Positions 30,868 through 58,064 of a stretch of DNA of 64,000 nt are shown here, piece after piece. Position 1 is the stretch's first letter; every line of letters starts with the position of its first letter. Source of the stretch: an uncultured Armatimonadetes bacterium (GTDB taxonomy: Bacteria > Armatimonadota > Hebobacteria > Hebobacterales > Hebobacteraceae); contig OY970296.1 in assembly GCA_963716175.1 (NCBI GenBank), positions 4,064,001-4,128,000 on the forward strand. Reading direction: 5' to 3'. Position numbers and translations under genes: made by a program. The notes below the pieces were generated by a model, which saw only the letters and a list, made by a program, of their open reading frames with translations, was not told the DNA's origin and ran no database searches.

Positions 30868-30966
30868 CCGCGGCGTCCGTTCTTGGCGATCGGCACCGGC
30901 GTAGGGGGAGATGTGCTTGTCGGTGATGCAGGAGCCATGGCCCTCCTCGGCGCGCTGGTCGGCATG

Positions 30967-31014
30967 TACGTTGGGCAGGAGCTTTAGTCGCCTCCAGCGA
31001 CTTGCCTCCTGCCC
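30967..31014 (+). repeat. GTTG-type REP-like hairpin
   Basis: 44/47 identical to 29538-29584. Confidence 0.85.
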
Positions 31015-31033
31015 GTCGTGCGACGGAGGTGAA

Positions 31034-32467
31034 ATGTCTGCTTACGAACCGAACATCGGCCTGGAAGTCCACGCTGAGCTGAACACGCGGACCAAGGTGT
31101 TCTGCGGTTGCTCGGCCGCGGTGGGAGCGCCGCCGAATGCACAGGTCTGCCCGGTGTGCCTGGGATTCCCCGGGGTGCTGCCCGTGCTCAACCGCCGGGT
31201 GGTGGACTACGCTCTGCGGATGGCGCTGGCGCTGCACTGCGAGATCGCCCGGCCCAGCATTTTCGAGCGCAAGGGATATTACTACCCGGACCTGCCCAAG
31301 AACTTCCAGATTTCCCAGAAGCGCGCGCCCCTGGGGCGCAATGGCTACCTCGATCTCGGCCTGGACGGTCGCACGTCGCGGGTTCGGATCACGGATGTGC
31401 ACATCGAGGAGGACGCGGCCAAGCTGCTGCACCCCAGCGAGAGCAAAGAAGAGACCCTGGTGGACTTCAACCGCTCCGGTATTCCGCTGTTGGAGATCGT
31501 GAGCGAGCCGGACATGCACTCGGCGGCGGAGACAGAAGCCTATATGAACGCCATTCGCAGCATCCTGCTCTATCTCGCCATCTCCGAGGCCCGCATGGAG
31601 CAGGGACAGGTGCGCTTCGAGGCCAGCGTTTCGCTGCGCCCCGCGGGCGCGTCGGAGCTGGGGACGCGAGTTGAGATCAAGAACCTGAACAGCTTCCGCG
31701 CTGTCACCGGAGCCGCTTCCTATGAGATTGCCCGCCAGACTCGCGCCCTGCAGTCAGGAGGGTTAATCGAGCAGGAGACGCGGCTGTGGGACGACGAGCG
31801 AGGCGTCACCGAGCCCATGCGGCGCAAGGAAAGCGCCATGGATTACCGCTACTTCCCGGAGCCCGACCTGGCGCCTCTGGTGATAGACGACGCCTGGATC
31901 GAGCGGGTGCGGGCCGAGCTGCCCGAGCTGCCGGAGGCGCGCCGGCAGCGCCTGATGCAGCAGTACAGTCTGTCCGACTACGATGCGGGCATCCTCACCG
32001 GGGAGAAGGCGCTGGCTGATTTCTTCGAGGCCACCGTGGCCGCGGGCGCGCCGCCCAAGGGGGCCGCGAACTGGCTGATGGTGGAGCTGCTGCGTCTGCT
32101 CAACGAGCGCCAGATGCAGATTGCCCAGGTGGCGGTCACGCCGGAGGCTCTGGCCGAGTTGGTCTCGCTGGTCGAGGCCGGCACCGTCAGCGCGCTGGCC
32201 GCGAAGAGCGTGTTCGCCCAGCTTTTCGGGCGCGGCGGCTCCGCCGCGGCCATCGTGGCCGAACTCGGCCTGGCTCAGATCAGCGACGAGGCCCAGCTCG
32301 CCGCGACCGTGGAGGAAGTGCTGACCGAGAACCCGGACGCGGTGGCCAACTTCAAGGCGGGAAACGAGAAGTCGCTGGGCTTCCTGGTCGGCCAGGTGAT
32401 GCGCAAGAGCGGCAAGCGCGCCAACCCGCAACTGGTGAACAAGCTCCTCCGAGATCGGCTCCTGTAG
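31034..32467 (+). CDS. gatB: Asp/Glu-tRNA amidotransferase subunit B
   Basis: IGLEVHAEL, CPVCLGFPGVLP, YPDLPKNFQISQ, HIEEDA, EIKNLNS, YRYFPEPDL. Confidence 0.97.
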   Translation: MSAYEPNIGLEVHAELNTRTKVFCGCSAAVGAPPNAQVCPVCLGFPGVLPVLNRRVVDYALRMALALHCEIARPSIFERKGYYYPDLPKNFQISQKRAPLGRNGYLDLGLDGRTSRVRITDVHIEEDAAKLLHPSESKEETLVDFNRSGIPLLEIVSEPDMHSAAETEAYMNAIRSILLYLAISEARMEQGQVRFEASVSLRPAGASELGTRVEIKNLNSFRAVTGAASYEIARQTRALQSGGLIEQETRLWDDERGVTEPMRRKESAMDYRYFPEPDLAPLVIDDAWIERVRAELPELPEARRQRLMQQYSLSDYDAGILTGEKALADFFEATVAAGAPPKGAANWLMVELLRLLNERQMQIAQVAVTPEALAELVSLVEAGTVSALAAKSVFAQLFGRGGSAAAIVAELGLAQISDEAQLAATVEEVLTENPDAVANFKAGNEKSLGFLVGQVMRKSGKRANPQLVNKLLRDRLL

Positions 32468-32617
32468 GGCGGGCATGTCTCTGCATGCCCGCCGGCCGTT
32501 GCCCTTCTGTAGGGCGGGCATTCCCATGCCCGCCGGGGCAGGCCTGCCCTACCCCGCGCCGTCGTTGTAGGGGCGTGATTCATCACGCCCAGGGCGCAAT
32601 GAATTGCTCCCCTACAG
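32462..32617. repeat. Cluster of GTAG-type REP-like hairpins
   Basis: Two CTGTAGGGCGGGCAT units plus GTAGGGGCGTGATTCATCACGCCC and GGGCGCAATGAATTGCTCCCCTAC. Confidence 0.9.
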
Positions 32618-32668
32618 AGGCCTCCGTATCTGGTACAATAGACCAGCTTCCATACCGAGGGACGTCCC

Positions 32669-32705
32669 CAAAAAGATCGGGGCCCGCCGAGAAAGCGGGC
32701 CCCGA
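32669..32705 (-). terminator. Intrinsic terminator
   Basis: TCGGGGCCCGC-N7-GCGGGCCCCGA followed by TCTTTTT on the minus strand. Confidence 0.85.
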
Positions 32706-32820
32706 ATCGGTTTGCGAAGGTGACGGCCAACGAGGCGATGTCACCTAGGAACGCTAGGCAACCACCTACGCGGCGGCCACCTCCGGTCTATGTAACATAG
32801 GACACCACCTCCTTTCTCTA
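32669..32820 (-). ncRNA. Candidate ~150-nt small RNA / micropeptide mRNA (ORF 32766-32798, MLHRPEVAAA)
   Basis: Own promoter, AGAAAGGAGGTG SD, 10-codon ORF, internal hairpins, terminator. Confidence 0.6.
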
Positions 32821-32825
32821 CTCAG

Positions 32826-32854
32826 AAAGTACCACATTTGGGCAGCCCGGTCAA
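32826..32854 (-). promoter_or_regulatory. Sigma70-type promoter of the small transcript
   Basis: TTGACC-17 bp-TACTTT with extended TG. Confidence 0.7.
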
Positions 32855-32899
32855 CCGCCCCGCGGCCGCTACGCGGACGCAGCCCGTCTGGTCTTCTCC

Positions 32900-32925
32900 G
32901 TTGGGCAGGAGCTGGCCTCCTGCCC
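32900..32925 (+). repeat. GTTG-type REP-like hairpin
   Basis: GTTGGGCAGGAGCTGGCCTCCTGCCC. Confidence 0.75.
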
Positions 32926-32963
32926 CCGCTGTGCCTCTGCGCCCCTGTGGTTCGGCCCTGCCG

Positions 32964-33404
32964 TCACACGTCGAACACCACGTGCCCCCGCCACAGCCCG
33001 TCCTGCTGCCAGATACGCAGCTCGTGGTAGGTCACAGCCTTCACCGGGGCGCCGGTGTGGGGCGTCTCCCGTGGCGCCGGGCCGCCCCGCGCCCGCGCCC
33101 GGAGCCGCCAGGGGTTCTCGCTCAGCGCCTCCACCTCGAACTCGCAGGGCACCGCCTCGTCCCTCTCCGCCACCCAGAGCAGCTCCGAGAGCCAGGCGTG
33201 CAGCAGATCCTCCAGGGAATCCGCCTCCACCTCTACCGCCCACTCCTGCTGGCGGCCGATGGCGTCCAAGTCCTCGCTCAGGCTGAACATCCCCTCCGCC
33301 GCCGCGCAGAAAAGCTCCGGAACCGTCCCACCCCAGGCCTCAATCGCCTTGTCCGCGGTGTGTGGAAGGAACTCAAAGCCGCGGCTTCCCGCCTCGTTCG
33401 CCAT
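32964..33404 (-). CDS. Archease
   Basis: FEFLPHTAD, WLSELL, VKAVTYH, C-terminal VFDV. Confidence 0.93.
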   Translation of the reverse strand: MANEAGSRGFEFLPHTADKAIEAWGGTVPELFCAAAEGMFSLSEDLDAIGRQQEWAVEVEADSLEDLLHAWLSELLWVAERDEAVPCEFEVEALSENPWRLRARARGGPAPRETPHTGAPVKAVTYHELRIWQQDGLWRGHVVFDV

Positions 33405-45105: not shown

Positions 45106-45177
45106 GGGCCCGTAGCTCAGTGGCAGAGCAGGCGGCTCATAACCGCTCGGTCGCAGGTTCGAATCCTGCCGGGCCCA
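45106..45177 (+). tRNA. tRNA with CAT anticodon, most like tRNA-Ile2 (lysidine); complete CCA not encoded
   Basis: GGGCCCG/CGGGCCC acceptor stem, TAGCTCAGTGG D-arm, CTCATAA loop, GGTTCGAATCC T-arm; TGGTATAAT just upstream. Confidence 0.93.
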
Positions 45178-56798: not shown

Positions 56799-58064
56799 TC
56801 AATCCACCTCCAGCTCATCGTAGATCGGGAACCGCGCGCAAAGCTTGCCCACTTCCTCTCTCACCTGCCTGCGCACTTCCGGGTTGAGGGGGCTGCGCAG
56901 CACCCGCCCCATCATCTCACCAATCTGCGCCATCTCCGGCTCCTTCATGCCCCGGGTGGTGACCGCGGGCGTGCCCGGCCGGATGCCGGAGGCGATGGCG
57001 GGAGGCTGATGGTCGTAGGGGATGCTGTTCTTGTTCACGATAATGCCGGCCTCCTCCAGTATGTTGGCCGCATCCCGCCCGCTCAATGGCAGGGGCCGGA
57101 GGTCGCACAGCACGAGGTGGGTATCGGTGCCGCCGCTCACCAGCCGGATGCCCTGGCCCTGCAAGCTCTCGGCCAGGGCGCGGGCATTCTTCACGATCTG
57201 ATGCTGATAGGCGCGGAAGCTCTCCGTCATCGCCTCCTTGAAGGCCACCGCCTTGGCCGCGATCACGTGCATCAGCGGCCCGGCCTGGATGCCGGGGAAG
57301 ATCGCCCGGTCAACGGCATCCGCGAGGTGGCGCTTGCACATGATGAAGGCGCCGCGCGGGCCTCGCAGCGTCTTGTGCGTGGTGGAGGTCACGATGTCGG
57401 CATAGGGCACCGGGCTGGGGTGGGCGTCGGCCGCGATCAGGCCCACGATATGGGCGATGTCCGCCATCAAGAAGGCGCTAACCTCATCTGCGATCAAGCG
57501 CCAGGCCTCCCAATCTATGGTGCGGGGATAGGCGCTGAAGCCGACCACGATCAGTTTCGGCCGATAGAGCTGGGCGATCTTGCGCGCGGATTCGTAGTCC
57601 AGCAGCTCCGTATCCCGGTCCAGCGGGTAATGGTGGACGCGGTAGTAGCGGCCCGAGAAATTGACCGCCTGCCCGTGGCTGAGGTGACCCCCGTGGTCCA
57701 CGGACAGAGAAAGGATAGTGTCGCCCGGCTCCAGCACCGCATAGTAGGCGGCCATGTTGGCCTGGGAGCCGGTATGGGCCTGCACGTTGACGTGGTCGGC
57801 CCCGAACAGCTCCTTGGCGCGGTCTATCGCCAGCTGCTCCGCCCGGTCCACGGGCCCGCAGCCATTGTACCAGCGGGCGCCAGGGTAGCCCTCCGCGTAC
57901 TTGTTGGTCATGATGCAGCCCTGGGCCTGGAGCACGGCCTTGGAGGCGTAGTTCTCGGAAGGGATCATCACCAGGCAGGTGCGCTGGCGCTCCAGTTCCT
58001 CCTCGAGCGCGGCGGCGATCTCGGGGTCGGACTGGCGCAGGGTGAGGTTCATCATCTTCGTCAT
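56799..58064 (-). CDS. glyA: Serine hydroxymethyltransferase
   Basis: [34 protein letters not shown]. Confidence 0.97.

Follow-up and report, generated by a model that had tools for sequence, protein, structure and literature searches.

In leader-peptide attenuators of the trpL and ermCL types, the translation of a short open reading frame (ORF) decides which RNA helices are formed, and an intrinsic terminator follows. Dual-function small RNAs (sRNAs) such as SgrS/SgrT, RNAIII/hld and SR1/SR1P stand alone and contain a translated small ORF, the peptide of which is conserved and functional. In transfer-messenger RNA (tmRNA), an ORF of about 10 codons is embedded in a structured RNA with the stop codon in a hairpin; the molecule has a tRNA-like domain and neither a Shine-Dalgarno sequence (SD) nor an AUG. 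Here we describe an element on the minus strand of a 64,000-nucleotide (nt) stretch of contig OY970296.1 from an uncultured Armatimonadetes bacterium. This whole stretch is called the window, and coordinates are positions in it; the element is read at about 32819-32670. Sequence comparison points to a real, free-standing small RNA gene that is found across Armatimonadota. With modest confidence we favour the reading that an RNA of about 150 nt is transcribed independently from it, that this RNA is a divergent relative, in Armatimonadota, of the sRNA family named Ms_IGR-5 in Rfam (RF02471), and that its conserved core would be a translation unit and not a peptide.

Unlike the trpL/ermCL attenuators, the element stands alone, without a regulated downstream gene or conserved sensing codons. 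Unlike SgrS/SgrT, RNAIII/hld and SR1/SR1P, it has a frame that varies from one lineage to another, and it has no known base-pairing target. With tmRNA it shares an ORF of about 10 codons in a structured RNA and a stop in a hairpin, but it has an SD and an AUG. ARAGORN reported 0 genes in 32300-33200 and Rfam gave no tmRNA match. A first-pass annotation of the sequence had likened the C-terminal Ala-Ala of the encoded peptide to ssrA-type degrons. This idea was rejected, since the Ala-Ala end is particular to this genome among the aligned relatives.

Ms_IGR-5 was validated by RNA-seq in Streptomyces lividans (PMC8079986), and for S. avermitilis it was described among the sRNA transcription units (PMC8780764). 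Homologues with ribosome-protected reads were described in Mycobacterium abscessus and M. smegmatis (PMC4974804, section 9). The parts of these three papers that were covered state no function for it. No account of a mini-ORF in Ms_IGR-5 was found in these papers or in the further literature searched. By title or abstract, nothing relevant was found on small RNAs of Armatimonadetes, no sRNA acting as a decoy for the anti-Shine-Dalgarno (anti-SD) sequence was described among the papers listed, and for mycobacterial small ORFs and sRNAs only a paper on an Escherichia coli upstream ORF was found.

Layout of the element and comparison with Ms_IGR-5

All features that had been listed in the first-pass annotation were present when the minus strand was read. 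The copies follow one layout. A complement of 12-16 nt to the 16S tail lies at the 5' end and is followed at once by a hairpin, P1, which presents the start codon. An ORF of 10-13 codons spans P1 and a box GAGGUG, the box and the next codons pair with GUCACC before the terminator, and the stop codon lies 14-17 nt past the start of the box.

In the window, the SD AGAAAGGAGGTG (32806..32817) is complementary over 12 nt to the 16S 3' tail. The single 16S gene of this genome ends with ...GGATCACCTCCTTTCT and the 12-mer is therefore the full complement of the tail, so that the proposed complementarity holds for the genome's own 16S 3' end. To call the SD maximal was too strong: it is very strong, yet 25 of the 24,407 GGAGG sites of the genome have at least 12 contiguous 16S-complementary bases, and its description as the strongest SD of the genome was rejected on the same count. 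The motif GAAAGGAGGTGGTG was invariant in 13 of 13 family sequences, and AAGGAGGTGGTG in all 61 sequences of a larger set that was partly selected by the same pattern. At a separate site outside the window, G000:C1:240097-240111 (minus strand), 15 nt (GAAAGGAGGTGATCC) are perfectly complementary to the 16S tail and are followed by the complementary CTTCCTTTC. A gene for a product that starts with a prepilin-type GFTLIELLVV motif lies about 65 nt downstream, and the site may represent an SD that sequesters itself in a 5' untranslated region.

The AUG was found at the loop/stem edge of P1 (32786..32803), where the hairpin CTATG-TTA-CATAG of the first-pass annotation extends further to GUC-C-UAUG/CAUA-GAC. 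The 10-codon ORF ATG TTA CAT AGA CCG GAG GTG GCC GCC GCG TAG (32766..32798), encoding MLHRPEVAAA, was likewise present as described. Within it, the SD-like box GGAGGTGG (32777..32784) forms the 5' strand of a long-range helix. The 3' strand is the anti-SD-like GGCCGTCACCTTC (32716..32728) directly before the terminator. Another anti-SD-like segment, ACATCGCCTC (32732..32741), is complementary to the 5'-end GAGGUGGUGU, and the hairpin P4 (32718..32746) is formed by AGGTGAC (32746-32740) and GTCACCT (32724-32718).

The locus had no match in Rfam at gathering scores. In a permissive search with 701 nt, the best match was RF02471, Ms_IGR-5, with 22.2 bits compared to a cut-off of 45 (E 0.0062, model positions 1-184), while suhB/mmgR, rnk_pseudo, mir-346, mir-504, TLS-PK1 and CC2171 (E 0.087-2.6) were dropped as terminator or chance matches. 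When whole genomes were searched with RF02471, none of the 15 family genomes passed the cut-off and the matches were at noise level; only G008 had a sub-threshold match on the element itself (16.8 bits). In G000 the best match was at a different locus (C1:2371189-2371318, minus strand; 19.4 bits, sub-threshold). The comparison with Rfam therefore gave a sub-threshold RF02471 match with the same layout, and because the curated 45-bit cut-off was not reached, the element is not filed as a formal member.

For comparison, Ms_IGR-5 copies were taken from one Actinomycetota metagenome-assembled genome (MAG), from three Streptomyces genomes, in which they scored 97, 83 and 83 bits, and from 121 genomes of the phylum. 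RF02471 matched in 36 of these 121 genomes, and 17 passed the cut-off. Without four genomes flagged as unpublished, the loci of which were left out of the reading, the numbers were 32 of 117 and 16 of 117. In the 30 copies read, the parts follow the same order as in the window. Both have the 5' GAAAGGAGGUGGU and then a hairpin enclosing a start-like codon. The actinobacterial 5' end reads ACAC..GAAAGGAGGTG(G/A)TCC, that is GAAAGGAGGUG(G/A)U, and the hairpin is GGTCC..GGACC with the start-like codon in the loop. The box is GAGGTG(G/A)CTGC in an ORF of 12-13 codons, and the stop is located exactly 15 nt past the box start (for example MYGNRTREVAAG or LIASRTCEVAAR), the same distance as in the window. 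Directly before the terminator these copies have GCAGTCACC, which is complementary to the box, and the same strand is found in the window. The pairing of a GAGGUG(G/A)C box with a GUCACC or GCAGUCACC strand next to the terminator is thus shared. The agreement also holds at the level of codons. The window's GAG GUG GCC GCC GCG UAG corresponds in frame and length to the actinobacterial GAG GUG GCU GCC CGC UAG, and codon strings such as UUG CAU AAA CCG / UUA CAU AGA CCC and AUA GAU AGU AGU UAU / AUG GAC AGU AGU UAU are common to both phyla. Like the element, Ms_IGR-5 occurs with one copy per genome and variable neighbours. The two differ in phylum, and most Armatimonadota read the box one base off the actinobacterial frame. 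An additional module, GUUUUAGCC...GGUYAUGAAC, is present in many Armatimonadota and in duplicate in one clade.

The statistical support for the link to Ms_IGR-5 is weak. A hidden Markov model built from the 5' parts of the 30 actinobacterial copies found the element as its best match in the 4.56-Mb genome, yet with E 0.062 and 14.4 bits; its second match was the complement of the 16S 3' end. In the opposite direction, two models were used: R1, a covariance model of the window's family, and R2, a model of the 5' part. R1 found the correct place in one of four Ms_IGR-5 loci (9.3 bits, E 0.034), and R2 ranked the Ms_IGR-5 locus first genome-wide in one of four carrier genomes (22.4 bits, E 0.01). 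The shared layout very probably reflects distant homology.

Conservation, reading frame and helices

A DNA search found the element in 13 of 41 genomes, comprising 12 of the 14 others in the family and none of the 26 outside it. Its conservation in relatives indicates that the element is more than chance. In the alignment of the 13 sequences, the -35 box, TGnTAnnnT, GAAAGGAGGTGGTG, the ATG hairpin, GGAGGTGGC, GGTGAC, GTCACCT and the terminator are kept, whereas the spacers drift. When the features proposed in the first-pass annotation were followed through the relatives, the SD motif was conserved and the peptide was not.

R1 matched in 22 of 31 genomes of the class. Twelve further R1 loci were read, of which seven were copies and five matched the terminator alone; among six more, four were copies and two were not. 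The matches L031, L036-L039, L045 and L048 were rejected because only the terminator matched or the match was part of a longer gene. The 11 copies found in this way have the promoter, GAAAGGAGGTGGTG, a start codon, an ORF of 10-13 codons with GGAGGTG or CGAGGTG, the hairpins and the terminator, and their gene neighbours are unrelated.

A scan of genome contigs for the SD-ATG-box pattern gave at least 119 loci. Among the matches listed, R2 gave at least 34.8 bits for 50 of these, all with ORFs of 10-13 codons; R2 was partly trained on pattern loci and its score there is therefore not independent. The same listed matches were labelled Armatimonadota, Chthonomonadales, Chthonomonadaceae, Chthonomonas or Candidatus Hebobacteria, a class of Armatimonadota, in 32 of the 50 cases, Bacillota in one, and had no phylum label in 17. 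The loci L078 and L097, from MAGs labelled Chthonomonas calidirosea, also carry the RNA. In 151 genomes of the phylum, R2 found one copy each in 70 at E<=1e-3 and in 54 at E<=1e-4; among the high-quality genomes, 63 of 134 had a match at E<=1e-3. Twenty of the 29 weakest matches were read and all 20 showed the layout. Of these, 18 had an NUG start and 10-14 codons, one had 18 codons and one only an AUU start. As a control, R2 matched none of 151 genomes on the Chloroflexota side at E<=1e-4. In the phylum of a Bdellovibrionales MAG, one of 121 genomes matched at the same threshold, which was that MAG itself. Its locus L129 (= L230), on a 3.6-kb contig of low G+C, has an SD, an ATG, MNDLLTSTAEVDAS, a stop 15 nt past GAGGTG and a terminator. 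Since it was the sole match among the 121 genomes, a third phylum was not counted.

An ORF of 10-13 codons was found in every family member that was read. Its frame was followed in the 61 sequences mentioned above, which are distinct Armatimonadota sequences picked partly by an SD+ATG+GRGGTG pattern and an ORF/peptide filter. In 58 of the 61, the distance from the AUG to the box was 13, 16, 19, 22 or 25 nt, which places all of them in the same phase. The three off-phase sequences (the window, L013 and L078) each have a matching change between box and stop, giving offsets of 15+15, as in the window, or 17+16, compared to the usual 16+14 or 16+17. With this compensation the stop keeps its frame and place. 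Less biased sets are the homologues found by the models and the actinobacterial copies, which were chosen by Rfam alone. In Actinomycetota, 28 of the 30 copies can be read in the GAG GUG frame from an NUG start, 5-10 nt past the SD core, without interruption to a nearby stop, while the two alternative frames contain a complete ORF in 3 and 0 of the 30 copies. The distance from SD to box varies from 22 to 37 nt with seven values that are not multiples of three apart, and the actinobacterial start codon shifts its position such that the frame is kept.

The peptide, in contrast to the frame, changes from lineage to lineage. The same box nucleotides are read as GAG GUG, G GAG GUG or GA GGU G in different lineages. 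They encode E-V in Actinomycetota, the window and L013 and G-G or R-G in most Armatimonadota, and L078 has a third frame. The peptides are MLHRPEVAAA in the window, MLHRPGGGVS in most of the family, xxSQRG[DE]xxx elsewhere and xxxRTREVAAR in Actinomycetota, and the tail EVAAA of the window differs from the GGGVS of its nearest relatives by a compensated frameshift. The synonymous sites of AGU CAA CGA GGU are invariant across dozens of sequences. The replacement of Ser by Cys in L093 and L121 is compensatory within P1 and keeps the hairpin paired. Since the ORF is kept in different frames across lineages, translation of the short frame seems to be under selection and not its peptide product, as far as the comparison of sequences can tell. 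Two contigs of one Chthonomonadales MAG carry one copy each, L056 (MNDSQRGEQAV) and L116 (MNDSQRGGQAV). They represent either paralogues or two strains that were binned together.

The RNA of the window is predicted to be strongly structured. The 157-nt fold had -79.1 kcal/mol compared to -55.8 +/- 4.2 kcal/mol for shuffled sequences (z -5.5), and none of 200 shuffles was as good. By pair counts in alignment A2, P1 was 78.4% paired, whereas shuffles gave 67.8 +/- 1.6 and none of 500 reached the observed value. Controls in which P1 was slid were paired to 17-35%, and changes on both sides were observed in three of five P1 pairs. The minimum-energy fold of the window RNA (-75.9 kcal/mol) pairs the box with 32728-32716; the duplex at the window box has -14.2 kcal/mol and p 0.095, which is weak when taken alone. 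The partners of this long-range helix co-vary by lineage, with GGUGGCUGUCC:GGACAGUCACC in L012 and L013, GGUGACUGCG:CGCAGUCACC in Streptomyces and AGGUGAGCAGGC:GCCUGUUCGCCU in a group titled Chthonomonadaceae. The duplex between the 5' SD and the anti-SD-like segment had -19.7 kcal/mol in the window (z -3.4), a value that none of 200 shuffles reached. When the 30 nt around the stop were held open in the folding, to mimic a bound ribosome, the 5' SD of the window RNA paired with ACAUCGCCUC.

The AGGTGAC/GTCACCT stem reported earlier was present and conserved: GGTGAC and GTCACCT were invariant in 13 of 13 sequences, and the inner P4 pairs co-vary, with one pair changed on both sides in two sequences. 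What had been described as echoes of the SD holds for GGAGGTGG and GGTGAC/GTCACCT, which are conserved, whereas the AGGTGG that follows the stop is not shared by the relatives. The module of GUUUUAGCC, a variable hairpin and GGUYAUGAAC is conserved in many other Armatimonadota copies and absent from the window's family. In the HR16-type clade (L057, L077, L095, L103, L115, L158), a GUUUUAGC...AUGAAC module is found twice in tandem within one RNA. With its invariant internal-loop bases it looks like a hairpin that binds a protein or ligand.

Promoter, terminator and neighbouring genes

The proposed promoter TTGACC-17-TACTTT was found with its -35 box TTGACC at 32854-32849 and an extended -10 region TGG+TACTTT (TGnTAnnnT; 32826..32834, with TACTTT at 32831-32826) after a 17-nt spacer. 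TTGAC(C/G/T/A) or TTTACA occupies the same position in all 12 relatives with upstream DNA present and also in distant homologues. The arrangement TTGAC-17-TGnTAnnnT was kept, spacing included, in the same 12 of 12. A consensus promoter scan of the locus nonetheless reported 0 promoters, and TACTTT, read by eye, matches TATAAT at just three of six positions. The case for the promoter is therefore made by its conservation. The intrinsic terminator with its U-tract (32670..32705, stem 32705-32677) has 12 pairs, 10 of them G-C, one pair more than the 11 bp of the first-pass annotation, and ends with the tail TCTTTTT. In the 13-sequence family alignment, compensatory changes were found at four of its pairs. 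From the spacing to the -10 region and a conserved AG, the transcript would start near A32819 and end with the U-tract (32670..32819), so that an RNA of about 150 nt is probably transcribed from its own promoter. The sequencing runs that contained the window sequence were 20 DNA runs and 0 RNA runs.

Upstream of the element on the same strand lies the gene for archease (32964-33404, minus strand), and downstream the convergent gatB (30911-32467, plus strand). Among the copies, the downstream genes included convergent gatB, PFK, a gene for a POTRA protein, a tyrS/trpS-type synthetase gene, panB, greA and mraZ. No co-oriented downstream gene recurs among the relatives, in which the neighbours vary and are often convergent. 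Because the downstream gene varies, the element is not a leader, in agreement with the earlier view of a stand-alone unit next to a convergent gene. Archease, a partner of the RNA ligase RtcB, is encoded directly upstream in 7 of 12 relatives, and gyrA precedes the archease gene in 6. The order gyrA - archease - RNA is kept across several genera of the family (L002, L004, L005, L007, L008, L011, and L003).

The gap between gatB and the terminator is filled by palindromic repeats (window 32459-32618) that resemble repetitive extragenic palindromes, CTGTAGGGCGGGCATG...CATGCCCGCCCTACAG, with two direct copies 45 nt apart and inverted partners. Similar GTAGGGCGGGC palindromes were observed at the loci L037 and L038 of other genomes of the family. 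On the plus strand, TGGTACAAT is found at 32631-32639 and corresponds to the extended -10 consensus. It occurs twice in the window compared to 0.05 expected, with the second copy at 57864-57872 (minus strand). The motif had been proposed to drive an antisense RNA. It is present, but as an antisense promoter it is not conserved and lies beyond the terminator in DNA that could not be aligned among relatives. At gathering score, Rfam matched the window at one place only, a tRNA gene at 45106-45177 (plus strand).

Proposed mechanism and competing explanations

The design suggests that the RNA senses or engages ribosomes. Binding of the 30S subunit would compete with P1 and open it, and a translating ribosome would then unzip the long-range helix, so that the RNA is remodelled. 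With the ribosome at the stop codon, about 6 nt would separate the box from the P-site codon downstream, as is normal for an SD, and the anti-SD of the terminating ribosome could therefore hold the box. In the window's family, the freed anti-SD-like strand could close the 5' SD, which would make the loading self-limiting. The shape of the RNA, and with it whatever the RNA acts on, would in this way be coupled to the availability of ribosomes.

Several points weigh against this reading. No target or output of the RNA was found. The Armatimonadota copies are known from sequence alone, and for the actinobacterial homologues the authors of PMC4974804 caution that many non-coding RNAs yield footprints. 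Of the 30 actinobacterial copies, eight start with CUG, one has only AUA and one only AUU. The related sequences are not independent, and their kinship inflates the pair-change counts in P1. The long-range duplex beats 200 shuffles (p<=0.05) in just 20 of 56 Armatimonadota and 10 of 30 Actinomycetota sequences. The self-pairing of SD and anti-SD-like strand is significant mainly in the window's family, with 14 of 50 at p<=0.05 overall, and was rejected as a trait of all copies. The filter behind the 61 sequences lost at least the true member L055 as well as the look-alike L129, so that 58 of 61 is not an unbiased sample. Finally, the stop triplets lie in helices where an A/G change opposite U leaves the pairing intact, and their restriction to UAG, UAA and UGA is therefore weak evidence.

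A decoy or sponge RNA that is not translated, as the first-pass annotation had suggested for the 30S subunit, is in our view unlikely. It would titrate the 16S anti-SD, or else a C-rich sRNA, a protein or some other partner that recognises SD-like, G-rich boxes. The ORF would then be incidental or merely let the ribosomes leave. Such a role would fit the SD and the GAGGUG box being the most invariant nucleotides, the 15-16 nt perfect complement of the 16S tail in some actinobacterial copies, the CUG, AUA and AUU 'starts' in 10 of 30 copies and the strong, conserved promoter elements. However, start, frame and stop survive indels and compensated frameshifts, none of which a pure binding site needs, and in the predicted ground state the box is engaged in base pairs. 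Most Armatimonadota boxes (CGAGGUGA) are without GGA, which argues against a CsrA-type GGA sponge. CsrB/RsmZ-type sponges contain many GGA loop motifs, whereas here, by reading only, one to three G-rich boxes were seen per RNA. Still less probable, and in our view very unlikely, is a micropeptide gene with the 10-13 residue peptide as functional product, which had also been proposed in the first-pass annotation. A strong SD, an AUG and a stop are present, and similar peptides recur within sub-groups (xxSQRG[DE]xxx; MLHRPGGGVS; xxxRTREVAAR). A functional peptide would be expected to conserve amino acids beyond the nucleotides and in one frame; found were three frames for the same nucleotides, invariant synonymous positions, Ser to Cys changes that track base pairing and a tail that changed from GGGVS to EVAAA by a compensated frameshift. 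An attenuator in which the leader peptide controls a downstream gene through terminator read-through has a similar layout of short ORF, alternative helices and terminator, and a co-oriented downstream gene does occur at a few loci (greA in L046, mraZ in L049, PFK in L003). It is hardly credible for this element, since the next gene is convergent in the window, L010, L012, L013, L029, L030, L033 and L047, pdxH is convergent in Streptomyces, and no downstream gene family recurs. Some probability is reserved for readings beyond those named here.

A bolder reading is a 'ribosome-parking' mini-mRNA of two phyla, in which the 16S anti-SD would be captured twice, at the start by the 12-16 bp duplex and then at the stop by the GAGGUG box, with ribosomes held or capped. 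We consider it rather improbable. If true, the RNA could protect the 16S 3' tail and would be an RNA counterpart of the hibernation factors that mask the anti-SD, and an abundant RNA of this kind could shift the balance between SD-led and leaderless translation.

In conclusion, the element has an unusual design: its ORF is kept while the frame changes, its very long SD lies at the extreme 5' end, and SD-like and anti-SD-like strands pair in an internal helix. Common to both branches would be a translation unit whose peptide may change freely. By this kinship, a family that Rfam knows just as an sRNA of Actinobacteria would be extended to a second, poorly studied phylum, and for the genomes of Armatimonadota these results point to a widespread, unannotated RNA gene.

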